Position numbers and translations under genes: made by a program
The notes under the pieces: generated by a model
Told to the model about the DNA's origin: nothing
The model's input: only the letters and a program-made list of their open reading frames with translations
Databases searched by the model: none
NCBI GenBank assembly: GCA_051294905.1
Contig: CM119372.1
Coordinates: 5,396,001 to 5,460,000 of the forward strand
DNA: 64,000 nt
From: Botryllus schlosseri
Lineage: Eukaryota
Reading direction: 5' to 3'
Shown here: positions 7,233 to 54,495 of the stretch, one piece after another
Layout: every line of letters begins with the position of its first letter
Numbering within the stretch: the stretch's first letter is position 1

Positions 7233-10200
7233 CTAACTCAACAGCTCGCATTTGAGCTGCGTCAACAGCTCTAGCGACTTTGACGTCGCGTCGGTCGAGA
7301 TCCGCGAATCGGATGAAGATTTCGAGTCCGGATTTTCTTTTCCACAAGCGGGGCGATTGTCGCTACATTTGCTTGAAGCCGGCGTCGATTGCGACTTGAA
7401 ACCCAACGGCATTGGCGACAAGGTCGATCCACTCGCGAACCCTGGCACGACGGAGGACGCTTGCTGGATTCCGTATTTCCTCAGGACGCGGTCGATGACA
7501 TCGTCACCCGATTCTGTGAGCAGAAACTCGGACGTAACAACTCTGCTCGAATGTGATTCGAGCACTAACTCTAACGATTCAAGTAGTTAAGGATGATCTA
7601 TTCGAACAGCGAAAAAACTCCTCACAATGCCAAATTTTAGGCTGATTTTGAGGGGTTCAAGGACGACGAGCTAAACATCATTTAGATTTTCGTAATCAGC
7701 TTTCGATTGATATCAAGTTATCAAATTTCGCCGCTCGGCAGGACAGTCTAAATAAATGGTGCCGTAAATTGCTTTTGGTCAAATGGAAATAATGACGTAA
7801 CCAAATCGCAGTGAGCCGTGAAATTTGTTTGTGTCCACACCATTGTAGGACACGATGATGGAATCCTCAAGTCCTTGATTGGTCGTACCGCACCACACGA
7901 TACATGCAGTGCAAAGTTACGCACGTTAGTAGAAACCCCACATCTGTGATGTCTTGAACAACTCGCATCATTTTCAGTGCAATGAAACAGCCATGGTCAA
8001 AAAAATACCATACCATCTTCAATGCGATATAGAAGTGGCATTACGTTCTTTGCAGTGGATCATAAAAGGGACGTATTTGACCTTTCCACATCTTTACCGA
8101 TATCACTTCACAATGAGCGATACTCGAGTAATTGACTCGAAGCCTTATACTAGATGGAAAATCGAATTACTCAGGCACTCAATTTTCCATAGCCCTAGCT
8201 AATTACCTTGATTGTCGCGTTCCGAGTCTGCGCGTGGCGATTTCGGAGGCTTGGAAGGGGGATCTTCAGCATATTTCGCTTGTGGAAATACGACACCCAG
8301 CCTTGGTTTTGTTTTTGGCTCTTAAAAATGGATAGCTCGTTAATCGGAGATATTTGAAGAGCGTGTTGGAGGTCCAGAACTTCAGAATACAATTGAATAA
8401 TATATTCATATAGAAATAAACCCGAATATTTTCGGCTGACACTTGTCAGGGGTAGTCGTCAGCAACAACTAGTAGAGAATTGAAAAAAGCATTGTATATC
8501 AACGCAAACAATCATATCGAAAAGATACCATATTTGGTGATAGGATTGTTGATGTACAACGTTCTTTTCAATTCTCTACTAGTTGCTGACGATTACCCCC
8601 GACTAGTGTCAGCCGAAAATATTCAGGATAATTATAATATAAATATATTATTTAATCGAAGGTAGGAAAAGACTTCATGGGTCTTACGTTTTCTTTGCTC
8701 CGTTTGATCTGCGTCTTCGTCGTTCATTCTGGCTGACAGACCTGCGACAAGCGAACAAGGTCATAAAGTGCTTAATGGTGTGCAGAAGTGGTCGAAGCAG
8801 TCATTGCTAGTATTCAAGAAGTAGTAACGTCTCAATTTCGACCCAAGTAGAGTAAAATGGAAGTATTCTAGGCCTAGTTTTCCCTAAAAACGGAAAACTG
8901 TCAGCTAGAATCAGAACGATAAAAACTTGCGAATGCAGTCCATGACTTCATATATACACGAAAATTTTTGTTTTGATAGTATTTTCCACTGCAGAAGCCT
9001 TAAAACCTCGATCGGTTGTATCGTAGCGTACGAAACATGTAATACAAACCACAAAGCTACAAACGTTAGTGTGAACGACACATCTGTGAAGTTGTGATCA
9101 AATTACAGCATTGTCACAAGGTGTAATGAAACCGGCTTGGTCGAAAAAATGCCTAGTATTGTTTATTGTAATGCAGAACTCGGATTGTATTCTTTGTGGT
9201 TGCATAAAAGGTAAATACTGTAACTTCCTTTCAAGATCATTCATACTGTCGTGACGTTATAATCAGCAACGGCACCATAACGAAATCTCAGTGTCCGACA
9301 ATGCCTGCTCTCGTGGCCGCAACATATATCTCTCCCATTCGATATTTTACCTTTGTCAGCATTTTCCTTGGCGTCGCGAAGCTGCGGGTGCGATGTTATG
9401 TGAGCTATCACTGTATTTGAGGCGTCCGATTCGCCCAGCGCGGATATGGCGCGAACATGGACGCGGTACTCCGTCGAATGCCTCAATCCTTCCAGCAAAG
9501 CCCGCGACTTTTCCCCGCCTACCATGCCTTTTGGGTGTCCGTTCACGTAGATTCTGAACGAGGCACAATCAGTATACAATGTAATAATAATAAATAGGGC
9601 GATTTTTTTGACCTTAAAAACAGGAGATTTTGACCTAAAAATTAGAATTTTTACATTCTTTGACCTTGAAAATCTTAATTTTGACGAAATTTGACCTAAC
9701 CTATGCCAATTAGGTGTTTTCCCACATAATGTTAGAATGGTACTACTTATCTTTGTTTAGGGTTGGAACTGTCTGCCCTTACGAAGTAGTTTCGTCTGAA
9801 AGAAAACCTTTTTTGCCTCAAAGACTGACAAATTTTTATGCGAAAAAACTTTATTACGAAATCTGACCCTATGAAGAATTCCAGCAGTCTACGCATTATG
9901 GTAGAAATTATTTAAAAAATTTGTAGTTCAACGAAAGATAGTTTTCTACAGAAAGTGTCTGTCCTTACTAAGTAGCTTGCCAAGAATGGAGAAATAACGT
10001 TCAACAGCAGCAGTTGTTGGCTGACAACACGGAAGTTGTGCGTAAACTGCTGGCGCCAAACCGTAGTTGCTTCATTCTGGCAATGGTGTCTACATCACAA
10101 TTTTTCATCATGCGGTTCTTGATATAAGAACCATGCAATGCCCATGCAGTCTTGCTTCAGTTAGGATGTTGCGGAACGTCGAGCGTAACACCATGTCAAC

Positions 10201-13200: not shown

Positions 13201-16200
13201 CAACAATCGTAGCACAAAATATGACGTCACCAGCACGAAATGTCGAATACGAGAGCGTTCAATGTACTATTTTTAGATGATACACGAAATCTTTTTGACA
13301 CAGCCTTGGCTGGTGTATTTCGATAAATTTGACAAGCAAAATTTTGACAAGTGTACCACCCCGTTACAGTGACATACTCACCGATATTACTTGGTCGATA
13401 TCCGCCCTTTTTTCGACGTCGTCCTGCGACATATCGACCAGAAGCGACTCCAGCTCGTCTGACAGTTGCGGGGCTTCGTCTGCGCTCATTTCCCAATCAG
13501 CTGCTGACCAGAGCACCACCGACAAGCTGAACACCGACGACTGAAACCAAGATATTATGTGTAAAGTTAGTTGTCCGAAAGCTGTTGGTCTTTGCATTGA
13601 TGCAGACCGAGTTGTCCCTGAAGTAGCTTAACAGGCGTGACGGCTTTGTAGTCGCTCAAACGAGAGAGTGACATAAGAATAGACATTGCGTAATTATTAT
13701 GCAATTATCATAGTATGCACAATGCGTAGAATGTAGGGTTACCATCAGTGTTGCCAACTCCGGATGGAAGAAAATCGCTAAAACTGGTGTCAAAAATCGC
13801 TAGATGTCGCCAAATATTGAGAAAAAAGCGCTAAAAAATAGCGCTAAATCTACATTCATTGCTAAAGGTGTTAAATTGAACCATTATTTCAATGCATTCT
13901 TCTCAGCTATATTTCAGTCGTCTGGGGCCAAAGTCACTTACCATATTTTTAGTTCATAATACGTAATATAGTCATCTCTAAGCGGGACAAAACGAGTAGT
14001 GCATTTCGATAAAGCAGATCGCTTTGCGCAATGATCGCTATACGTGACTGCTGACCAGGTTTGCAGGCATAACCGCGGAAATGCGCTTGACTTCTTTTCT
14101 AAACTGTGTTGGAGTACTTGAACACGACATGCGACTTGACACACTTATACACGACATGCGACTTGACCCGACACTACACGACATGAACCGGGTTTGCCAG
14201 CCGCTATAAGTAGAGACATTGAGAAAATAATCTGAGGACCAGCCCGGGGTATGAAATGTAATTAATCTAGTCCTGAACCAAAGCCAGTGTCACACTGATT
14301 CCGACAACACGAACTAAATTCTTGTCAAGACAATGGAACGACCTCAAAGCAGCCCCCAAAGTCTGAAAATCGGCATTGATCAGAACAATCGCTGGACGAA
14401 ATTGGTCATTGTTATATTCAATGTGTTGCAGCGGTGCCATTGTTGGAGCAATGCCGGTTCTCAAACCTTTGCCGGCTCTCAAACCTTGAGGGCTATTTCG
14501 GGGTGCATGGTTCCATTGTCCGGACGAGACCCCACTTCGTATTCTCGAAATCACCGCGAAAACTATCTTTCGATCATGGCCAATTATATTAAATTTCAGC
14601 GCTCAGGTCGCCAGATGTAGCACTGCCAATTATGCTACTCAGCAAGAAGAGACACTCTTTGCCCATGCGTAACCGCGAGGAGTTGCGTATCTCTACTATC
14701 CAAAGTCACTCAACTATGACAAATCGTCCGAACGTATTTTCATGGAGCAAGAAATGTTCCACAACTTGATGTTATGTCAGCCAAAACTTATCTTTATTGG
14801 TTATTTCCGGTAAAAAAAAGCGCTAAATAATCGCTAAATACTTTTTCAAAAATCGCTAGATTCATCGCTAGGCGCTAGATCCATATTTTTTGGCGCTAAA
14901 CCGGATGAAAAATCGCTAGATCTAGCGCTAAAATCGCTAAATTGGCAACACTGGTTACCATACGTCCTCTTTTAAGAGGATTTGTCCTCTTTTTTGACTT
15001 TTTTGAAAGTGTCCTCGGAGGACGCCCTCTAGTCCTCTTTTTTGAAAATTTAGGTCAGATTTAGAGCAAATTGCGAGTGATATGCCGTAAATTAGGACAG
15101 AAGTGACGCTCCGGCGGGTATTTCGGACTGAAAAACGGTGATTTTAGCTCTGGGCGGAAAAAAGATCTTTTTTTTTTTTTAGTCATCCACCTAGCAATGC
15201 GGAAAGAAAAACGGTATTTTGAGCTCTGAGCGGAAGAGATGACCTTTTTTTTTTTTAGCCAACCGATCACAAAGTGGGAAAAATTCACGGGTTTTTGAGA
15301 ATTCTTCTCTGGTTTTGCAAGACTCAAATTTCTGAAAAAGTGTCCTCTTTTTAGATTTTCAAAATATGGTAAGCCTGGTAGAATGTGGTATTGTAAGCTT
15401 CATAACAGATATAGCGGCGTTAACTTAAGACCATATTATGTTGCCAGCAACTAGCAACTGTAACCACTTGCGAATTTTCAGTGAGATTGGCCGAGTGGCG
15501 GTGCCGCTAAAGCCAGGCACCGTGGTGGGCAAAGTCGTCACTCTGGCACGAGCCATCAAACCCCCAAATCAGGTGTTCTTGCCTACCAAAAAATGCACGA
15601 AATTCTTAATGGTAAGATAGAGATACCATATGTGCTCTTTTAAGAGGATTTGTCCTGTTTTTTCATTAAATCAAAAAGGTTCCCCGAGGATGCCCATATA
15701 CCCTTTGTTTTCGCAATTCGCAATTCTTTTTTGAGTGTAAGGCGACTATACAGAGATGACCAATAGAGGTCGACGCCTCCATAAAATACACGTGATAATT
15801 AGCTTTATCTGGAACTGGCAAATAAAAAGGTCCACTGTCCGCGGATGCCAGATTCGAGGTTTTTTTTAGTCAATCTACCGGGTGATCAGCATTTTCACCA
15901 TATTTTATAACATATTTCCCTCTTTTTGTAACTTGAAGAAAGTGTCCTCTATTTGGACCTTAAATATGGTAACCCTATGTAAGGTAACAATTGATGCATA
16001 AATATGATTGGCACAGGTTGCGTCCATGACTGCTGCTATATCCCCTAATGCAGTGCTATTCAAAGGTTTGGTTACAAAAGTACAATTAAATAAAACACGC
16101 ACTGATTACCTTGACAGTCGCCGGATGCCTTTTGTCGAGCACTTCCGGAGCGAGATACATATCGTCAACTTCCTCCGAGTTGGTGTCTTTGAACTCAACG

Positions 16201-36889: not shown

Positions 36890-38030
36890 TTATTAGGGTC
36901 TATACCTACGGAACTGTTGAAATCTGGAAACAGAATTGATTTAGCAACATGTATAGATATTTGCTGCATAACGAGACAAGCAAAACCAGGCTTTTCACCA
37001 TCTTCATAATTTTCCATACAACTCTGTGTCCCAACTGCAAATATACCCTTGTGGCCTGCCGGTCGAGTACCACCGTACTAGTAAATAATGTCACAGATGT
37101 TATTAAAAGGATGTGAAACACGAAATGGAATATATCAGCGATCCCTAGTTGTTGGTTACAGTGCATGGTCAGGTCACCCTCAGTTATCCCAAAAGCAGAA
37201 TGTCTATCAATTGTAAATCGATTCACTCGGAGACGTGGACATTGTGACAAAGTGGGACGGGAACACTTGGATAGTCCTCTATGTTAATCCAATCGTCCCA
37301 CTCTGTGAATTTGTCTATTAATGGAGGCAGTAGCTTTCCTCACATTCATTTATATCCAACTTGGGAGATTCTATGTTTTTTGGTGTGCAACTAAATTTAG
37401 GTCGACATAAACATTTTCGTTTATAACCTTAAACTGGAAGAATCTGGAAATCATTTCTACTCTGAAGTGTAGGGCTCTTGTCATGCTATATACGAGGACA
37501 CATAATATTATCCTTACATAGAATATGCAAATTTTATAAAGTAGATAGCCAACAATGACACACCAAAGCTAAATCAAGTATAAGGCTGGTTATTTAAAGC
37601 AACTGGTTTTGGAACAAGAGGATTATGTAAAGACAGGGAAGTAGCATTTCATGTTCGCCTAAGATATGTTGATGTTATAAAAATATCGTTTAGAAGTCAC
37701 TTTGTGGACTCTGTAGGTACTGGTAGACAAGCCCTGATAAGTCAAGCACAAGAAATGGTGAATAGGTGTGAAGTGTAACATCAATAATGGACTCACAGCA
37801 ATTCCTAGGTTTATAGAAAATGGAAATCAACCAAATTATGTTTTCGGACTTAACAAGACTTGTTTCTTATGATTGTTCTTGTAACTATCATAGAGCATAC
37901 AACACCCTCGCCAACAGGTTATTCACTACTTCATCGCAGAGTCTTAGAAACTGGGGCATGGAGCTGGTCAGCCCGAATATTACTACATAGTTTTCAATAA
38001 TGTCTTGCATATAACTAAAATATATATGGG
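36890..38030 (+). pseudogene. Decayed env-like reading frame (gypsy-type envelope resemblance, tentative)
   Basis: Frame from 37512: PYIEYANFIK*IANNDTPKLNQV*GWLFKATGFGTRGLCKDREVAFHVRLRYVDVIKISFRSHFVDSVG, later GAWSW before a hydrophobic stretch; internal stops, no introns. Confidence 0.35.
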
Positions 38031-38805
38031 AAATCTTGACTTATTAGATTCTTAAATTCACAAGCAACATGTTACTGGCGTACAACCTGAGAGAGCCTCG
38101 CGCCTCACAATTTGGGAGCCACTGATCTGAGTCCATCGATAGCGCAGACAATAATAACCATCTTCCTTCCTAGAACGGAAGGTATTCTATGCAAGATGAG
38201 GGAAGACAACGATTCGAACATGGGGCATACCGCGACGGCTCACAACCGGAGTTGAGCGTGGATATGGAATTGGAGTTTGATGCCAAAGAAAAACGATTTG
38301 AGCGGATTAGGATCGAGTTTGGATCTACGATTTTTGAAGGGGGATTTGAATTTGTACTAGGATATGGAATTTCTAATAATTGACAATTTTCATGCCACGG
38401 TTTATAAAAATTCATCCATTACCGGACTTGGTTTTGGACATGATTCGGACAGTTTTGGATTTGGATTTCTCACTTGGATTTGAACGACAAATTTGGGCCA
38501 AGAGTTGGATTTGAACTTCTTAAATCATATCAGCTACGCACCGCATCAACTACGTAAAGTTAGCGAGAGCAAGTTTGCTGCCGACCACAAGAGATCATAA
38601 TGTCACGGATGTTGACGCAAAAAGATGATAGTGTCTCTGCAACACTTTGTTTAGTTTTCGAGATTCCCGGTGCGTAAAGCCTATCGAACTTCTGTTGCGA
38701 ACGCAGTGTACAAGCTGATGTAAACAATCAAAACCATCCCACCGTGTATTCGGATTTAGGACCACACGCAGACACCTTGACATATCAAAGTCTTACGTAA
38801 TAGAG

Positions 38806-39391
38806 ATTACTCGAGTGCGAAGTGGGTGCTATATACTACGCGATTGTTCTTTTTAGCACAGGAGCAGTGTTTGTCAAATCTGCGTGTAGATTGCAGGCGG
38901 CTACTTTGTTTGGTGGAATATCCTGAGATATAGCTCGAGACAGCTTGCGAATACTCTCTTAACTCTGTACACGATGTCATTCAAACTGAAATATTCTCCT
39001 AAATGCATTCTCCTATTCTCGATCTTGATTTCGTACCGCCGTTAAAGTTATTGTCCCTTATTTGATACAACGGTCCATAAAGAGCACTATCTAATCGGAC
39101 TACCAACATATTATGGGCTACATTTTTCAGCCGCTTCAAATCTGGGTCGCTTTGGTGCGCCCGGAGACTTTTCGGTTGGTGCCGCGAAGACATTTCAAAC
39201 TTGTAGTTTTCACCTTTCTCATCACTTGCGTACTGGAATTACAAACACACCAAACTCGACTAATAGTTAGCCAATATACGACCAGGTACAAGACCGATAT
39301 TTCTTCATATCTTACGTGGAAAACGTTTAGGGGTAAGGATCGATCCGATTTCTGCCCGTAGGCTCTGGAGATCTCCGAAATATCATGCTGC
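38806..39391 (-). CDS. Possible exon cluster of an unresolved gene
   Basis: Candidate GT-AG exons ~39391-39316 (QHDISEISRAYGQKSDRSLPLNVFH), 39232-39037 (YASDEKGENYKFEMSSRHQPKSLRAHQSDPDLKRLKN...) and 38922 onward are phase-compatible, but there is no recognisable domain and competing plus-strand splice signals exist. Confidence 0.3.
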
Positions 39392-39704
39392 CTGGGGTAA
39401 GAGCAATCAAATCGAAAACCGCAATAAATTGACATCGCGAGATGCGTATTGTAATATCGAACATTTTTGCGAGGCTTGACAAGTGTGAAAATAAACAAGC
39501 ACGTGCATGTTGTTTACATTAAATGATTACAGTATTGTGCATTTTGTGAAAATAAAATTTTGTAATTCCATTGTTTCTGCAGGCCTATCTTGAAATAAGC
39601 AATATTTCTAATTCGTTATTGCGCCGCGAGTATTGAGAAGTTATCAATGGGCACAAAATAGTTTATAAACTGCGGGCATAGACAATATATGTAGTAAACC
39701 ACAG

Positions 39705-39810
39705 TGGAACAATAAAGTAATAATAATAATATTAATAATAATAATTTAAAATTTGTTGCATCTATAGATAAAAGCCAGCTAATAATATAGGTGTTAAATA
39801 AATTTCTTTG
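39705..39810 (-). promoter_or_regulatory. AU-rich element region in the putative 3' UTR of the cytokine-like gene
   Basis: Minus strand has gaaATTTATTTAac ~65 nt after the stop, followed by a (TTA)n tract. Confidence 0.45.
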
Positions 39811-39867
39811 GAAGAAGTGCAGCATATAGTAGTTTGTTGGCGAAGTGAGTGCGGAAAATCCTTATGA

Positions 39868-41812
39868 TCATTTCAGCCGTTCAATGTATAGCTTGGTATG
39901 CCTCAAAAAGTCCGATAGTAGACAGTGGTGATGTACCTGAATCAAGAAAAGATATGCATAAGAATTTTATTTCTTCGACAATACTCAAGTAAACATTGCA
40001 ATAGAGAAACACCGATCAAAATGTGCCGATTCCCAAACTACAATGCGGAGACCTTGTTCCACGGGTGAATTCGTGGTCGTTTGTTTGAACACATAACTGT
40101 CACGTAACAAATTATACTCAGCAATGCAACTACAAAACCGGGTTGCATACACGGTGAGGAAACGATGAAACGATATTGCATTGATAGTGATGGAGGAAGA
40201 GTTGGATACAGAGTACATTTATTTGATTTGTTAGCATAACTGGTTTATTTCCTCCCTAGGTGTGCTACATTGTAACATACTCTACCAATTAGTTTGCATT
40301 GAGCGTACATCATAACGTCTATCACCATTGGACCATACTATGGATTAGTAGATATTTCAGTTCTATACAGTGTTATAGTATTCAGTTCATAAACAAACAT
40401 TACCTGTCTGTGATATTCGTTCTTATGTGAAAGTGCTTGACGCCACCGATCAGCGTGGCTTGTAGCAGTTTTGCGGGACCGCCTGATACCCTGTGATTGT
40501 GATACGGAAGTTGACTTAATGCTCTCAGCAAACACACGCTTGTAAACGTACCTCGTCGCCAAGTAGTTTGAACGCGCGTTTTGTTTTGTGCAGCTTGTGC
40601 AGTAAATCATCAAAATCATTGCCGTGTATCATATGATCATTGGTATATTCCAATAATGTGGTGTAATATTCCAGTAGTTCGAGTATCGTCTCGTGTTGTT
40701 TTCTTGTCATGGAGCTCTGTAGATGAAAATAGGGGAAGATTAGAGATATGGCAATATAAATTGATAATTTGCAGCAGGTAATCTCATACCGACAGAATAT
40801 ATTCACATTAGGTTTTCAGAGTCGGTTCGGAACTCATCCAGTAGCATTCGGGCTGTACATTAGTTTGAAGCCAGCATAGATATGGTGCTTGCTACCAACA
40901 ACAACAGTTAGTCAAAATGAATAGAGTATACATATTTTACATAGAGAACGAAATACAGTGATTTATACGAGTTTATGCCAGGAAGTAAAAGGATTAAGAA
41001 GGCAATTACTCGCAACATAATGAGTTGAATACCAATGTCAATTATGGCGCTCTAGATCTTCAGTTTTTACTTATTTAATAATTTAATTCATAGTCTTAAT
41101 ATGAATAGAAATCTTACCGAAAATGTCGACGCGTAATTCTTCTGGCTTCTGGATTGAGGAATCTGAACAGAAATGAGCAATTCATTTTCTGTAATCAGCG
41201 GCAAATAATTACCGTCTTACCAGCTTCAACGCTTCCTCAGAGATTGCTTTCCTGACATCTAATATCCTATCACACTTCTCAAATGTATTTCGACATTTGT
41301 GGAAGAGACTGCTGCAATAGCGACGCTCCGCCGGATTGTACAGATGTACGGCCTCGGCGCACGACTGCACCGGTTTGAGACAGTGGAGAAAAACCATGCC
41401 TGTATAAAAGCAGTCTCAGTTAGAAATCTCTCGAAATAGTTCTCGTCTGTGAAAAAGTCCTACCTATAGTAAGTAGATTTATTTGTGAAAATCGTTCCAT
41501 TATGTAGATCTGAATAGTGAATATATCTCACCCGATCTTATATATATAGCAGTTTCCGAGTGAAGAAACTTCTTCCTCCATGTTATTTTAATTGTTTCCG
41601 TGGTTTATATCTATTGATTTCATGACAGTGCCGTAAACAACATCTGCAATATAAATTATGATTATGCATATCAGTATATAGCCACAAAAGTAAAATAATG
41701 AACCTCGTGATGCAAGGCGCCTGTTATGAATCAACATCAGATTCCTTGAACTTGCACGATGTACAAGATGGACTGATATACCTCCAAGGTATTTCACGGC
41801 GGACGTGCGCAT
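39868..41812 (-). CDS. Secreted 191-aa helical protein, putative long-chain four-helix (IL-6/IL-11/G-CSF-like) cytokine, 6 exons
   Basis: Exons 41812-41782, 41399-41221, 41162-41118, 40716-40552, 40490-40404, 39936-39868, GT-AG, phases 1,0,0,0,0. Product: MRTSAVKYLGGMVFLHCLKPVQSCAEAVHLYNPAERRYCSSLFHKCRNTFEKCDRILDVRKAISEEALKLIPQSRSQKNYASTFSSSMTRKQHETILELLEYYTTLLEYTNDHMIHGNDFDDLLHKLHKTKRAFKLLGDEGIRRSRKTATSHADRWRQALSHKNEYHRQVHHHCLLSDFLRHTKLYIERLK*. The gene model is well supported; the family call is inference. Confidence 0.7.
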
Positions 41813-42412
41813 ACACTTTACGTATGCATTATAAAAATTTGGCCCGAACCCCTCGATATTGAGAACAAAGCCATCCGTGCAAAGAATAATGCGAGTCAAA
41901 TGTGATAGGTGAAACAATGTGGCAGGTCACAAATGGTGAAAATTAGGATTAGGAGGATCATCATTGCATGAATACGTGATCAACTGATCATGAACACTTG
42001 CTACACTTGTCACGTCGCCACTCACAAAAGGTTATTTCTCCATTACGCTTTCAACTAACTTGCTGCCAACAATTCGCGAGCTCCAATAAACAACAGCATA
42101 AAGTACAGCTCATTCTCGGACTTCCGATATACAAAATCCGGTAGTTCAACGTGAAATGCAACAATCGAAATCCAATCATTCTCGAGAGTGATTTCTCCGT
42201 GAATTGAATTGAATTGGTCAATGGACAGTATTACATCTTTAGAGACTAATAGCTACTGAACATATCAGTAAAAGTGCACTTTCAGCTTATAGCGATCTAT
42301 GCTTTCTCATTGCGTTTCAGAGTTGCCGTCCGCCTGAATCTACCTTCTGCGAAATGTCCTGACTACATCGTCAGTGAGTTTGTTTGTTTGTTTGTGGTAC
42401 TCGTGGTGTTTG

Positions 42413-42588
42413 TTGACTACTGTTGTCATTTACACCAGACAAATTCTGTTCGTTTTAATTCCGTAGCTGCCGACTTGTAGCACGCCCTACTTCTAGGCTT
42501 TTATAAGACACCGCCTACACGGATGAGATAGCGAGGAGGAGCCTAGATAAACCTTCAACACGTGGGTAGGAATTCTGGAGTCGACCTC
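42413..42588 (-). mobile_element. SINE body fragment
   Basis: Colinear with 50880-51060; lacks the tRNA-like head. Confidence 0.75.
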
Positions 42589-45500
42589 GTAAGTGACTGA
42601 CAACCGTGGCAATTTCGTAGGCGTAGGCGTATATGGGAAAATGGCTATCTTTTTTTCAGGCATTACCTTTGCGTTGAATTCTTGATTCAATACCGTAGTC
42701 GCTTGAACTAAAAGCAGTTATATTATTTGCCTAAAATGTTGTGGATCTCTTTACAGTAAAGCCAGCGCTATAAAAATACTGCATTTGAATATACGACGTG
42801 GTCCATACCTTGCATTGTCTTATTCCTTGAAATTACTAGGGCTACACAAAATCGAGTACGCGAGCGCTTCGACTCTGTGCCGAGTATTCGGCTTCGAGTC
42901 AAGTCGAATTAAAACTCATTCCATAACAGGAGATACGACTTCGGAATTTTGAAATATTTACCTTTCGTACAACCTTCAAGAAGATTTTGCTAGTAATATC
43001 ATATCACAGATAACTTGGCGTTTCTTTACCATATACCAATCTTATAGTGATTTTTAGCAATGCCGTGGGTCGGTCACTATTTTCCAAAAAGGCCGTCTCT
43101 ACGAATATGCGTAAGCTTGTGTTACAGGTTTTGGATGCTGCGGTGCCAGCGATAGTGGTTTCAAGGCGCGCTTGGTGGCAAGAAGTATCGAAACGATAAT
43201 TCTCGTTGATAAAATAACTTTTAGTGAACAGGGAGAGGTCAATTTCGATACTCGTAATGTCGTTTCTCACTACTCGAATCGATTCTTTGCAATTAATACT
43301 CGATTCGGATTCGACTATTCTCGTCTCGTCCTAATTAAATTATCTGTTGGGCGACATGCTTGACGTTACATGACGTGGGCCGACTTCAGAGAATGGTTGA
43401 CAATACACATATATGATACACTCGAATTCGAAAGACTCGTACGGAATTTACTTATGCACGTATAATATTTACCATTTGGTTACGATATCTTCGTCATCAG
43501 TCCGTGAACTTTCGAATGGTTTCGTGTCAGAACATACTCCCAAACAGGTTCCAGGCTGTCAAACGTCCGAGAGGTCAGTCATTGCGTAAATGTAGCGTAG
43601 GACACGAAAACAGCGATGTCTTGAGTCATCGTTGCCTTGCTAGTCCGGTCATGTTGTACTCAAACTGTCGTGAAGGTTATTGAAAATAAAGAAAGTTAAC
43701 CTTATCATGTTTAGCTAAGGCCACTTTGCCAAAACTGTGACAACTGCTGAAATGATGCATCTGGGATTTACGTAGTAGGAAATCTAGCTCTCTCTGGGCA
43801 TAAGACCACTGTCTTTTCTACTACAATAGTGAATGAAGTCATGGATAACACCGAGATCTCGCAAATGCCATTGATTGAAGGATAATGTCTAACTTTCGCC
43901 TAAAATTTCATATTTCATATTACTCGCATGTATTAATGCCGCGAAGTTGGCCTATTTAATCCTATTTACTCGGACCATTCAATGATACTATTATTATTAA
44001 AATTGGATATCTGATTACGTATCTACAATGTGACTGCTGCATACCAAATTATCCATCTCATGTTACCATCAATTAGTTCCATTTGTGTACTCTAGTCGGA
44101 GGCAGTGAAAGTAGACAGCGTTGATACTTAGGAGTGTTAAAAAGTAAACTTAGATAAGTGGTTGTTATCGAGTGGTCGTATACTTACATTTGTTAATCAG
44201 AGAATACGTCTTTCGAAATTGGTGGGTGCATCTTTGCGACTAACGCAAAATGACTAATGACAGAAAAGTATAGCTGCAATTATCGAAAATTCATTCAGAT
44301 ACAAGAACTATTTCGCCCAGTTGTAATGAGAATTACACTCACAGGAGGGATGCAAACATCTCCGAATTGTAGTTTCTACTTGAATAAAATCCAAACTGTA
44401 AAAATTAGGTAGTTTGGCCTGAAAATACGGTTCGAGTAGAATTGCAAGTAAATCTAAATACATAATCAATTTGTATAAGTAGACCCTATACATGAGCACT
44501 CCGAAAAGTAGAAGTAATTCGATCTGACCAGATCGGACTGTGCATCATAATATGTCAAAAGCCTCTACGTTTATGGCAGAGTCTATTTCCTCGCTCTATC
44601 GAATCAAAGTAACAACCGCAAACTACATCATGAGTTTATATAGACATATGAGTTTTTCATGGCCTAACCCCCAGACAATGAAGAACAAAAACTATCCGAT
44701 CGGTGATTTCACATTATTGTCACATGATATAGCAGAGCAGCCTAAGTTGAGAACATTATCACCAGACTATCTAGATTATAATTATTTGCCCCCAACAACA
44801 CCATGACATCGGCTAGCTGTATGGGAGGATCACATTATTTATGTCATTGTTGTGATATATTGTCGCTGCATGAATGGATCTTTCCGTCATCAACCGTTCA
44901 TGTACATCACATGTGACTTGTATTTCGTCATATCCAGAATTTTACGTCCGAATTTCGATTAAAGTTCACTCCGTAATTGCCAGGTAGCGCAGTAAGCCGG
45001 AGAGGAATTTGATTAGTAGCATACATGATTAATGTCGCGTCTGATTTGCGAAGAACACCCGCTTGTCAGTGACGTAGGAATAGCTGTTTGATCAGTCAGT
45101 TAAGTTCAGGAATCTAGCTTGGTCGATTAACATCGCATGAATATGGGATTATGGAGAGTTTTAGTAGTCGCTGTAGTGCAATGATGCGCACGTACCTCAC
45201 TTGTGATGTCACGACTCTGTACAGTGTCACGTTCCGCGGTCGATTTCATTTCTCCCTACCGCTTTTAATTAATGCCCTTCCACAGTCACACAAGTCAACA
45301 AGAATCGGCCTATAATACGATCTAGCGCGTTCTTGATGTTACATCGCGAGTGGAAACTACCGATATGTTGAAATTCCTATACGGTACAACGCGCCAATCG
45401 AATTCGACACTCTCATAAATAATTCCTTTATGAGACATCGATATTTCAGTGGAACTTGATTGGTCATTCAATTGGTCAATGAACATTGAACAATCTTTCA

Positions 45501-51572: not shown

Positions 51573-54495
51573 GGGAGACCGGGGTTAGTTGTTACGATTT
51601 TGTCCATTACTGGCCTCACGGCTTTTCTACTCGCCTTGCGCAAATGATTTTGTTACACAGTCTTCACTTAGCACCCACTTACTTTTACAAAGTAGAATGG
51701 AACTTCAAGCTCTTATACGTTTGGAACTATTTGCATTTTAAACAGGTGAGTTTTCTGTCATAACTTACCCCGAGATGGGGGTAAGTTGTGACTGGAGAGG
51801 AGGCAAGTTGTTACATTGAAATTGTCAGCTGAAAACTCTATATCCACAATAAAAGCATTATTGTAACCATGTGTATTGAGAACGAAACGAAAGAAAAATC
51901 AAACGAAACAGCAAAATATGAAAAAAGTCATTCAGTCCTTGCAAAAATCACACACGTAGGGTGTAGAGCGATCACTGCATGCTTCATGCGCCCACTTTTG
52001 ACATTCATTGCATTTGACCCATACTTCCTCAGACCTAGAGTTGTCATAGGTGTCATGGCACAGTAGGCAATGATTGTTACTAGCATCTGTGTTTGTTTTG
52101 TCAGTGAAAGCTAGGTTTCTTTTTGTTTCTTTTTTTGTTTTCTTTTTGTCAATCTTAGAACTTTTTGCTTCCTTCGCCAAGTGCTCCTCTTGGAGGCGAT
52201 GTCGTTCAGGAGTGCTTGTTAAGATGGAGGAACGGCGCCTCTTTCTCCCACCAATTTTTTTCTGCCTGGGTGCGGCTTTGTTGAAAGGCCAAATCATCTC
52301 CGGTGTCGTCTTGATACCAGTGGGAAAACTCGGCACTGTATCCTCCATTGATCTTGGTGTACCAACTGCATTACTTGATGTGGCAGGCTCTCCAGAGTTT
52401 TCTGGTGCGCATGCCTTGCTGTTTGAAGTAGAAGTCTCTGCCGATTCTCCTGGTGCATTTACAGCGCTGCTTGAATCAGCAGAATTCTCATCAATATTTG
52501 CTATTGTTGGCATATTTTCCTCTTCTGGCATGGGTCTGTCGGTCGTGTAGCTTGGAAGAAATTCATCATCAGCAAATACATTATCATTGAATGGGAATAT
52601 CCCAGCCACTTGGAACCCTTTTTGAATATTGGCTGGGGTTGTTGCCAATGGAAGCGCCTGCTTCACAATTTCTGGGATATCAAGCATTGTCATTGGACGA
52701 CCCCGATTGGTCTTCAATAATGCCCCACAAGCAGCATTGTAGTACTTCTTGAAGGGTCCGTAAACACTCCTGTCCAGAGGCTGCAACTTATGAGAGCAAT
52801 GAGGAGGAAATGACAGCAACACAACTCCATTATCCCTGCAGTAATCAATCACATGTATGGACGTATGCGAGTCATGATTATCAAGTAAAAGTAACACAGG
52901 ATTTTCTTTTGTACATCGAACAACTTTGATAAAATGTTTGATGAAAACCATAAAATTTTCTCCAGTCATCCACCCTGATCGATGGGCTGTGCCAATGCAT
53001 CCAGGTGGACCATGTTTTATGAAATGCGGTTTGAAATTCACCCGTGGAAAAACAAACTGTGGCGGAACAACGTTTCCACTCGCACTCACAGCTAGGCACA
53101 TGGTTATCAAAACACCTCGCTCTGCTGATGTTATTGCGCCAACCTGTTTTGATCCCTTTTTTGCCACAATTCTGTTGGGTCTCTGAACTGTAGTGATACC
53201 AGTCTCATCACAATTATAAATGTCCTGGCATTCAAATTGATACTTATCCAACACCTGGGATAAGTTTTGAAAAAATAGTGCCACATTGCTGCGGTTAAAG
53301 CTCGTAGCTCTGCCCAGGCTCGTTGCTTCAGGTGTACGAATAGATAGGCTGGAATGTCTTTGTAAAAAGGAGGTAAACCAATCTGGTCCAGCTTTTTTGT
53401 TCGTGAGCCAATTTTGTGGGACTTGAACACTGTTGATTGATGCATATTCATATGCCAACTTCCTTACATCATCAGGTGTTAAACCATAGTACAGCTCGGA
53501 TGCTCTTTTGATGTACTTAACCAGAAGCTGCTCTTGGTCATTACGAAAAACAGCTCTTGGTTTTGCATAGCCAACAGATGGTTGTCCTCCAGAGCGTATT
53601 TTGGTACAAAATCTTTGCAGTGTCATAAAATTGATCTGCAATTATATTAAGTCATTGTAAGTCAAGTTGACTGCAAAAGAATAAACAAAATACCCACTAG
53701 ATACTTACATCAAATTCAGTGGCGACAGTGCGAAGAGATTTTTTTTCATTAATCACTCTTCTTGCAGCTTCTTCCATAACCATCATAGATGTAGTGCCTC
53801 TATTGGTCTTCTTTTTGTAATGCCTCACCATAATCGCAGAGAATATATAGTTAAGCAACAGAATCAATCTACATGATAGGAGCAGGTTAATGAATACATT
53901 TTCATAAGTAATTGCAGAAGAATCCAAGCTGTCTTCAACTTTTTCATCACTTAATCAGTGTAGTGTAGGTCTAGTGTGGCTTTCAATGTCACTGCACAAA
54001 GATTTTGGTTGAAATATTGCTAAGCCTATGAGGATGGATGAAATTCCATTAATAAATAATGCCAATCACACATCATAAATATTCAAGCAAATAATGAGGC
54101 TAGTTGTTACATCCGTAAAAATGTGCCCCCGCCGAATATGGGCTGTTTAAGCTTACTTGCCGCCTTACATAACCAACAAACAGCACAAAGTCAACTGTGA
54201 AACTAAACTTCAGGTCGTCCCCTTTCTATCGATGTAAATTGAACATATATAGGTCGCACGCAACTACTGATGCACCAGCGACACTTGATAAGTAAAAGTT
54301 TTACTTTATAGCCCTCAATATACCTTTTCCTGCATAAAACTTTATGCAAGCACAGTTCGCAAGCCAGGCTTCGTTAGAACGTACTCTCCAACCAGCCGAG
54401 TAAACTGTGTAAAAATGGTGCGCCATCTCCCGGCAAAAGAAAAATCATTGATGTTGTAACAATGGTCCCCCATAACAACTAACCCCGGTCTCCCC
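51573..54495 (-). mobile_element. Full-length pogo-superfamily (IS630-Tc1-mariner group) DNA transposon, ~2.9 kb
   Basis: TIR gggagaccggggttagttgtta / taacaactaaccccggtctccc(c), TA on both flanks (51571-72, 54496-97), encloses an intact transposase. Confidence 0.95.
51932..53831 (-). CDS. pogo-type DD35D transposase (608 aa): HTH_psq, CENP-B-type HTH, DDE_1, PHD finger; 2 exons
   Basis: Exon 1 53831-53709 (MVRHYKKK...SLRTVATEFD), 73-bp GTAAGT..TGCAG intron, exon 2 53635-51932 (INFMTLQR...). Catalytic YNCDETG, LLLLDNHDSH, QPLD (35 residues between D2 and D3); C-terminal C-x2-C...WVKC-x2-C-x2-WAH-x2-C...C-x2-C. Confidence 0.93.

Follow-up and report, generated by a model that had tools for sequence, protein, structure and literature searches.

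The minus strand of a 64,000-nucleotide stretch of the Botryllus schlosseri genome (positions 5396001-5460000 of the contig called C2 here; hereafter the window) carries a real, spliced and transcribed six-exon gene with a TATA promoter. The gene encodes a basic precursor of 193 residues that is probably secreted. We infer, tentatively and with somewhat less than an even chance of being right, that its product functions as an extracellular signalling ligand of the helical-cytokine or hormone type. A first-pass annotation of the same DNA had gone further and described the gene as an IL-6-type ligand of gp130 and the JAK/STAT pathway; IL-6-family membership is unsupported by the present analysis, and we cannot tell whether that more specific ligand reading is right. 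Even if the product is no cytokine, the locus is a well-expressed gene matching no protein in the searched databases, and it demonstrates that open reading frames (ORFs) broken up into exon fragments conceal real, probably secreted proteins in this genome.

Structure and transcription of the gene

The first-pass annotation had spliced six minus-strand segments (41812-41782, 41399-41221, 41162-41118, 40716-40552, 40490-40404 and 39936-39868) into a 576-nt open frame of 191 amino acids. The frame was reproduced, and all five donors of that model read GT, all five acceptors read AG and the intron phases are 1,0,0,0,0. Part of the gene stretch is present in 19 of 24 listed sequencing runs (6 studies). 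Four public runs were aligned to positions 38000-44000 of the window, comprising three contig runs from three studies (X1, X4 and X15) and one raw RNA run (X22). The types of runs X1-X19 were guessed, none of them being listed as RNA, and transcript nature was judged from the spliced contigs once aligned. Four junctions (39936/40404, 40490/40552, 40716/41118 and 41162/41221) were each carried by one contig in X1, one in X4 and one in X15, with junction ends that read CT..AC on the plus strand and thus GT..AG on the minus strand. Because these four junctions are carried by all three contig runs, exons 2 to 6 and introns 2 to 5 of the first-pass model are exact.

The alignments also indicate what kind of molecule the contigs represent. 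Depth was 0 in all four runs over 41618-42220 and in X1 and X4 below 39206, and because the flanks are silent the X1, X4 and X15 contigs represent transcript and not genomic sequence. Colinear contigs running straight across introns 3 and 5 were detected at low depth (6.5 and 11.4 versus 85-120 for the spliced forms), and these are unspliced precursor. The raw RNA run X22, of which about 6 in 100 was read, gave 1-2 reads per bin over the gene and neither supports nor opposes it.

The part of the first-pass model that did not stand is its first exon and, with it, the first of its five junctions. In X1 the second exon is joined instead at 41399/41464, across a 64-nt GT..AG intron, at a depth of 63.7, and the contig continues for 63 letters beyond the junction, as far as 41526. 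In X15, a loose end at 41463 represents the same joined form of exons 1 and 2 as in X1; the X4 contig terminates at 41374, short of exon 1, and is uninformative on this junction. The corrected coding sequence (CDS) is 582 nt long, encodes 193 amino acids and leaves the proposed phases of 1,0,0,0,0 unchanged. Its ATG lies at 41500-41498 (position -3 is A, position +4 is G), and an in-frame stop codon at 41530-41528 stands just upstream. Mononucleotide shuffling of the CDS left a frame open for 193 codons in 1 of 20000 shuffles, and the frame is therefore not a product of chance. The mRNA is roughly 1.0-1.2 kb in size, and the gene extends on the minus strand from about 41526 to about 39425 or 39281. 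Its parts, all on the minus strand, are as follows.

41537..41548, minus: TATA element from a pattern scan (TATATAT at 41548), preceding the 5' end of the run contigs by about 12-30 nt; X15 has a strand-switch loose end at 41518
41464..41526, minus: true exon 1, comprising roughly 26 nt of 5' untranslated region (UTR) and 37 nt of CDS (12 codons and 1 base), with the predicted signal peptide start; donor GT at 41463-41462
41400..41463, minus: intron 1, 64 nt, phase 1; X1 junction and X15 loose end
41221..41399, minus: exon 2, 179 nt, with the rest of the predicted signal peptide, the predicted cleavage region and predicted helix A (35-71) with Cys41, Cys48 and Cys55
41163..41220, minus: intron 2, 58 nt, phase 0; junction in all three contig runs
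41118..41162, minus: exon 3, 45 nt, contributing a Ser/Thr-rich segment to the AB loop
40717..41117, minus: intron 3, 401 nt, phase 0; junction in all three contig runs
40552..40716, minus: exon 4, 165 nt, with predicted helix B (92-115), a 4-residue turn and predicted helix C (120-141)
40491..40551, minus: intron 4, 61 nt, phase 0; junction in all three contig runs
40404..40490, minus: exon 5, 87 nt, encoding the basic CD loop (RRSR motif) and, after it, the first half of the presumed helix D
39937..40403, minus: intron 5, 467 nt, phase 0, splitting the presumed helix D; junction in all three contig runs
39281..39936, minus: exon 6, last 22 codons and stop (39936-39868), followed by 3' UTR; seen as contig pieces with a loose end
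41782..41812, minus: exon 1 of the first-pass annotation, outside the transcript seen, lying where all four runs have depth 0 and reached by no junction

Two ends were observed for the 3' UTR, a poly(A)-like end at 39425 in X15 and an extension to 39281 in X1. Most of the AT-richness of this 3' UTR is due to a microsatellite, (AAT)n/(ATT)n, that lies within it at about 39707-39754 and was passed over as a repeat when the runs were aligned. Upstream of the gene a single STAT-type TTCN3GAA site occurs at 41750, and as a single occurrence it was given no weight. Exons 2 and 4 are single-copy in their own genome, no paralogues were found in the window (the best stray tblastn match had E=1.0), and Rfam returned 0 matches over the window.

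The predicted protein and its alleles

The corrected protein begins with a charged segment that gives way to a hydrophobic stretch of 14 residues (mean Kyte-Doolittle hydropathy above 2 near residues 11-16). Small residues then occupy -3/-1, and cleavage is favoured after residue 25 or 27. Residues 1 to about 25-27 are thus probably a cleaved signal peptide and the protein is probably secreted. The signal-peptide-like N-terminus described by the first-pass annotation is upheld, and the corrected exon 1 results in a better signal peptide than the one first proposed. The mature part would be basic, with an isoelectric point (pI) of about 9.4, and comprise about 166-170 amino acids; the precursor contains 15 histidines in its 193 residues. 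Basic sites include six dibasic pairs and, within the CD loop, an RRSR motif, and no N-glycosylation sequon was found in the protein. Cysteines occupy positions 19, 26, 41, 48, 55 and 176, of which Cys41, Cys48 and Cys55 share one face of helix A (i, i+7, i+14).

AlphaFold2 was run without an alignment on exons 2 and 4, each taken singly. Exon 2 alone was modelled as one 37-residue helix covering protein residues 35-71 (22-58 of the exon translation), with a predicted local distance difference test score (pLDDT) of 87-90. Exon 4 alone was modelled as a helical hairpin of residues 92-115 and 120-141 (exon residues 5-28 and 33-54) closed by a 4-residue turn, with a mean pLDDT of 88.4 and a predicted template modelling score of 0.67. 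The helices A, B and C claimed by the first-pass annotation are contained in these single-exon models, and its short BC loop and long AB loop are upheld, with an AB loop of about 20 residues and a BC turn of 4; the basic CD loop would have about 12. The sole prolines and glycines lie where the proposed helices end (35, 74, 119, 140 and 143), and because neither occurs from residue 144 to the C-terminus a long helix D, at about 154-193, is plausible. Within it, residues 175-192 would form a basic helix with a hydrophobic moment of 0.49. When the exon-encoded segments were co-predicted as four chains the resulting score of 0.02 gave no answer, and it carries no weight either way.

The composition of the protein bears on a different function. 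The product could be a lineage-restricted, secreted helical protein that is not a cytokine, such as a His-rich cationic antimicrobial or metal-binding peptide precursor, an apolipoprotein-like protein or a component of the matrix or tunic. Styelid ascidians produce His-rich helical antimicrobial peptides, the clavanins, and the high pI, the 15 histidines, the dibasic pairs with RRSR in the CD loop and the strongly amphipathic basic C-terminal helix would all suit a protein of this sort, as would the lack of relatives in the searched databases. A typical antimicrobial precursor of about 80 amino acids is, however, far shorter than this gene product, which also has neither Gly-Lys-Arg amidation sites nor an anionic pro-piece. 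The four predicted helices, the long-short-medium loops and the cysteines on one helix face resemble one folded domain and not a string of peptides. We regard a non-cytokine role of this kind as doubtful, though it deserves to be kept in view.

Comparison of the window with the X1, X4 and X15 contigs revealed three coding differences, all of which change the protein.

41364: S25A, in the predicted signal peptide; contigs of all three runs versus window
40677: L101I, in predicted helix B; contigs of all three runs versus window
39868: TGA in the window (stop codon 39870-39868), TGC (Cys) followed by Ser and TAA in one contig each of X1, X4 and X15; plus-strand T>G, 72 letters from the contig end

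The contig allele, the common one among the expressed sequences, would consequently encode 195 amino acids with a C-terminal Cys194, and the window allele is 2 amino acids shorter and lacks that cysteine. The difference at 39868 may be a polymorphism or an assembly error. Being few in number, the coding differences offer only a hint of weak constraint or fast evolution.

Searches for relatives and the candidate function

Relatives were sought in the protein databases and in the species' own assembly (495.5 Mb in 219 contigs), and profile scoring was done on single exons and not on the spliced protein. Pfam hmmscan assigned 0 families to exons 2, 4 and 5 at E<=1 and 0 to exon 6 at E<=0.001. Among PDB sequences, no cytokine chain matched exons 2, 4, 5 or 6 at E<=10. 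Exon 4 matched one SAM-domain chain (E 0.59) and exon 2 matched five ENPP1 chains (E 0.36-0.7), all of which were rejected as chance; exons 5 and 6 had no PDB sequence matches. A word search with exon 4 against a database of 5.8 billion clusters gave no match at either the 'longer' or the 'near' length setting, and the best ESM Atlas score for this exon was 0.80, to phage hypothetical proteins that were likewise rejected. A phmmer search with exon 2 against 1.84 billion representatives returned 4 matches, the best at E 1.5e-9. Three of these are long bacterial MopE-repeat proteins and the fourth has 12 matched stretches and no informative Pfam family; because each protein contains 4-12 repeat copies the E-values are inflated, and all four were rejected as chance.

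This absence of relatives invites a further explanation, namely that the gene is a young or weakly constrained orphan whose product has no conserved role in extracellular signalling and may be intracellular or anchored in the membrane by its N-terminal hydrophobic stretch. A single-copy gene with no homologue among the 1.84 billion representatives or in the word searches, a low Atlas recognition score and three of three coding polymorphisms that are non-synonymous, including the loss or gain of a stop, is what such an orphan would look like. Yet the locus has six exons with canonical splice sites, a TATA promoter, a strong start context and substantial contig depth in several studies, and its 193-codon frame is not due to chance and gives confident single-sequence helix predictions. 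Cytokines, moreover, evolve fast, so that orphan status is equally expected of a helical signalling ligand. On balance we consider the weakly constrained orphan unlikely.

Of the known cytokine families, IL-6/G-CSF was the one proposed by the first-pass annotation, and true membership by descent, with residues resembling site III and the six exons as first listed, would account for the phases of 1,0,0,0,0, the placing of introns within the signal peptide and behind helices A and C, the length of about 190 amino acids and the helical segments. The sequence searches point away from it. The exon 1 on which that proposal drew has no support from the runs, and a six-frame search of the genome at E<=10 with the profiles PF00489 and PF01291 gave 2 and 3 weak hits respectively, none of them at this locus, so that the IL6 or LIF_OSM profile match looked for was found neither there nor in the single-exon Pfam scan. 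The weak hits lie far away, and the two best LIF_OSM hits are transposase-like. No IL-6-family chain appeared in the PDB searches at E<=10, and cysteines 41, 48, 55 and 176 appear unlike the IL-6 disulfide pattern. The AU-rich 3' UTR also put forward in the first-pass annotation proved to be at chance level, with no enrichment of AU-rich elements: it contains 4 ATTTA motifs versus 2.2 expected (369 of 2000 shuffles reach 4) and no UUAUUUA(U/A)(U/A) nonamer. Descent from the IL-6/G-CSF lineage is accordingly judged very unlikely and constitutes a minor share of the confidence placed in a cytokine-like ligand, which may merely resemble that lineage.

The near-threshold LIF_OSM hits (20.3 and 19.5 bits against a cut-off of 23) were read, from their translations only, as a hAT-type transposase and not as cytokines. 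They are near-identical long open frames located at C3:26805300-26807600 and C10:20180000-20182400, and they represent a trap for cytokine screens in this genome.

The wider reading of a cytokine-like or hormone-like ligand draws on the architecture of gene and protein together with the host context. Intron phases of 1,0,0,0 characterize the genes of long-chain class I cytokines and hormones (IL-6, G-CSF, EPO and GH). In the gene described here the first coding exon is short and ends in phase 1, and phase 0 only follows, which agrees with the family pattern apart from two positional departures, and its intron 1 lies within the predicted signal peptide, intron 2 just after helix A and intron 4 just after helix C. 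The size of the protein, its loops (AB 20, BC 4 and CD about 12 residues), the phases, the introns after helices A and C, the TATA promoter and the presence of a receptor pathway that lacks a known ligand together favour the cytokine-like reading.

Regarding that pathway, a profile search of the genome located STAT_bind exons on contigs C2 and C8 and one Jak1_Phl match, the only one in the genome, at C12:7664011-7664130. The latter lies in an uninterrupted open frame of 1152 amino acids, and the JAK gene may for this reason be intronless or nearly so. Profiles for the insect odorant receptor, COX1, class I of the major histocompatibility complex and arthropod cuticle had no hit in the genome; for all but COX1 the result is weak, since those profiles were also silent in control genomes. 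Ciona is reported to have one GP130-like and one CLF-3-like class I receptor, and the portion of that report available to us names no ligand for the GP130-like receptor (PMC1963337). According to the available text of another study, sequence screens identify IL-6 in vertebrates only (PMC13203501). The literature searched describes no helical cytokine ligand in tunicates. Combining intron phase and protein size with a signal peptide and a predicted fold is, as far as the accessible text of a recent preprint describes, a route already used to find divergent helical cytokines in basal chordates; the same text includes the Styela clava proteome in its structural database and reports no interferon homologue among invertebrates besides lancelet (bioRxiv 10.64898/2026.05.30.728932).

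If the product is indeed such a ligand, the precursor of 193 amino acids (195 in the contig allele) would lose its signal peptide to yield a basic, His-rich mature protein in which four long helices (35-71, 92-115, 120-141 and about 154-193) pack as a bundle. The cysteines of helix A might be tied to helix D through Cys176, or through Cys194 in the contig allele. The most natural receptor would be the single GP130/Domeless-like class I cytokine receptor of ascidians, with signalling through the JAK and STAT genes of this genome. That the protein is the long-sought ligand of this receptor, and a founding class I helical cytokine that retains the ancestral 1-0-0-0 phases, is a more demanding proposal that we hold to be rather improbable. 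If true, it would mean that IL-6-type signalling ligands predate vertebrates, with a founding sequence-orphan member in the vertebrate sister group. The gene is in either case a concrete, expressed candidate, with exact exon coordinates, for the activator of the tunicate cytokine receptor.

Several observations weigh against a cytokine-like ligand. With respect to sequence, no similarity to any family or solved structure emerged from the Pfam, PDB, Atlas and profile searches, and no homologue was found although Styela clava proteins are in the searched databases. The receptor profiles IL6Ra-bind and Lep_receptor_Ig (PF09240 and PF06328) had no hit in the genome in an exon-by-exon search that is insensitive. 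The divergence of the CDS (3/582) is not below that of the introns, which gives no sign of purifying selection, the numbers being tiny. With respect to the protein, the signal peptide was judged by a rule of thumb (hydropathy and the -3/-1 rule), and the single-exon models cover helices A to C and the BC turn, so that a compact four-helix bundle with up-up-down-down topology is a conjecture going beyond them. The amphipathicity of the best four windows, a crude score based on the hydrophobic moment, is marginal (59 of 1000 shuffles reach it), and a crossover connection would call for a longer CD loop than the roughly 12 residues present here. The presumed helix D is interrupted by intron 5 and no intron falls in the BC turn, leaving the intron positions only partly like those of IL-6 and G-CSF; the apparently foreign cysteine layout and the ordinary content of AU-rich elements in the 3' UTR, both given above, belong on the same side.

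Elsewhere in the window, an fn3 exon (9244-9756) and a KIND exon (13367-13627) on the minus strand belong to one neighbouring gene, and the KIND exon has 80% identity to an uncharacterized Styela clava protein of 1467 amino acids with KIND and fn3 domains, which fits a host that is most likely an ascidian related to Styela. In every run, contig depth over the intervals 42422-42622 and 43025-43225 was very high (up to thousands) and uneven, and variant letters and loose ends were numerous. These intervals resemble a dispersed transcribed repeat similar to a short interspersed element, whose loose ends show a tRNA-like GTCGGACTCGAACCC tail; neither ARAGORN nor Rfam detected a tRNA at these two intervals. 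An uninterrupted minus-strand frame of 569 amino acids at 51935-53641 encodes a DDE_1 transposase of the pogo/Tc5 type, in which an HTH_Tnp_Tc5 domain is accompanied by a weak PHD-like zinc finger at the C-terminus; the element may have been active recently or have been domesticated.

Comparison with known systems

The pairwise matches of exon 2 concern the bacterial MopE-type putative metal-binding repeat (PF11617), with which residues 26-48 (window positions about 41300-41360) share a C-x14-C-x6-C spacing and an Asn-Pro-Ala motif. In contrast to the repeat, the region lacks the acidic Asp-Asn-Asp-Cys-Asp-Gly half, is predicted to be helical and has its first cysteine in or at the signal peptide. 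The PF11617 profile did not match exon 2 at E<=1, and the similarity is pairwise only, at 20-27 bits per repeat. We judge the resemblance to be due to chance; it would matter if Cys26 were kept in the mature protein.

The long-chain class I cytokines and hormones (IL-6/G-CSF of PF00489, LIF/OSM, CNTF, EPO and GH) offer a parallel in overall plan, with a predicted secreted precursor of about 190 amino acids, four long helices, and loops that are long at AB and very short at BC. Their genes also have a phase-1 intron in the signal peptide, phase 0 only thereafter and introns after helices A and C. The Botryllus gene differs in having six exons instead of five, helices B and C in one exon and an intron in helix D, and its protein differs in its lack of sequence or profile similarity, its cysteine layout and its CD loop of about 12 residues.

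The interferon homologues of lancelet and lamprey share the logic of their discovery with the present gene, being, in the available text of the preprint describing them, proteins of about 200 amino acids with a signal peptide and conserved intron phases, found in an invertebrate chordate among others (bioRxiv 10.64898/2026.05.30.728932). These are class II proteins with phases 0-0-0-0 and five helices according to the same text, whereas the gene here begins with a phase-1 intron.

A further parallel is provided by the Unpaired proteins of Drosophila (Upd1-3), the ligands of Domeless. The Upd proteins are about twice as long as the Botryllus product. They are, like the protein predicted here, basic, secreted, helical and fast-evolving and are missed by sequence searches outside close relatives, as described in part in PMC6996930 and PMC12419797. 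The two cases share one logic, in that an orphan GP130-like receptor together with a JAK/STAT pathway requires a ligand of this kind.

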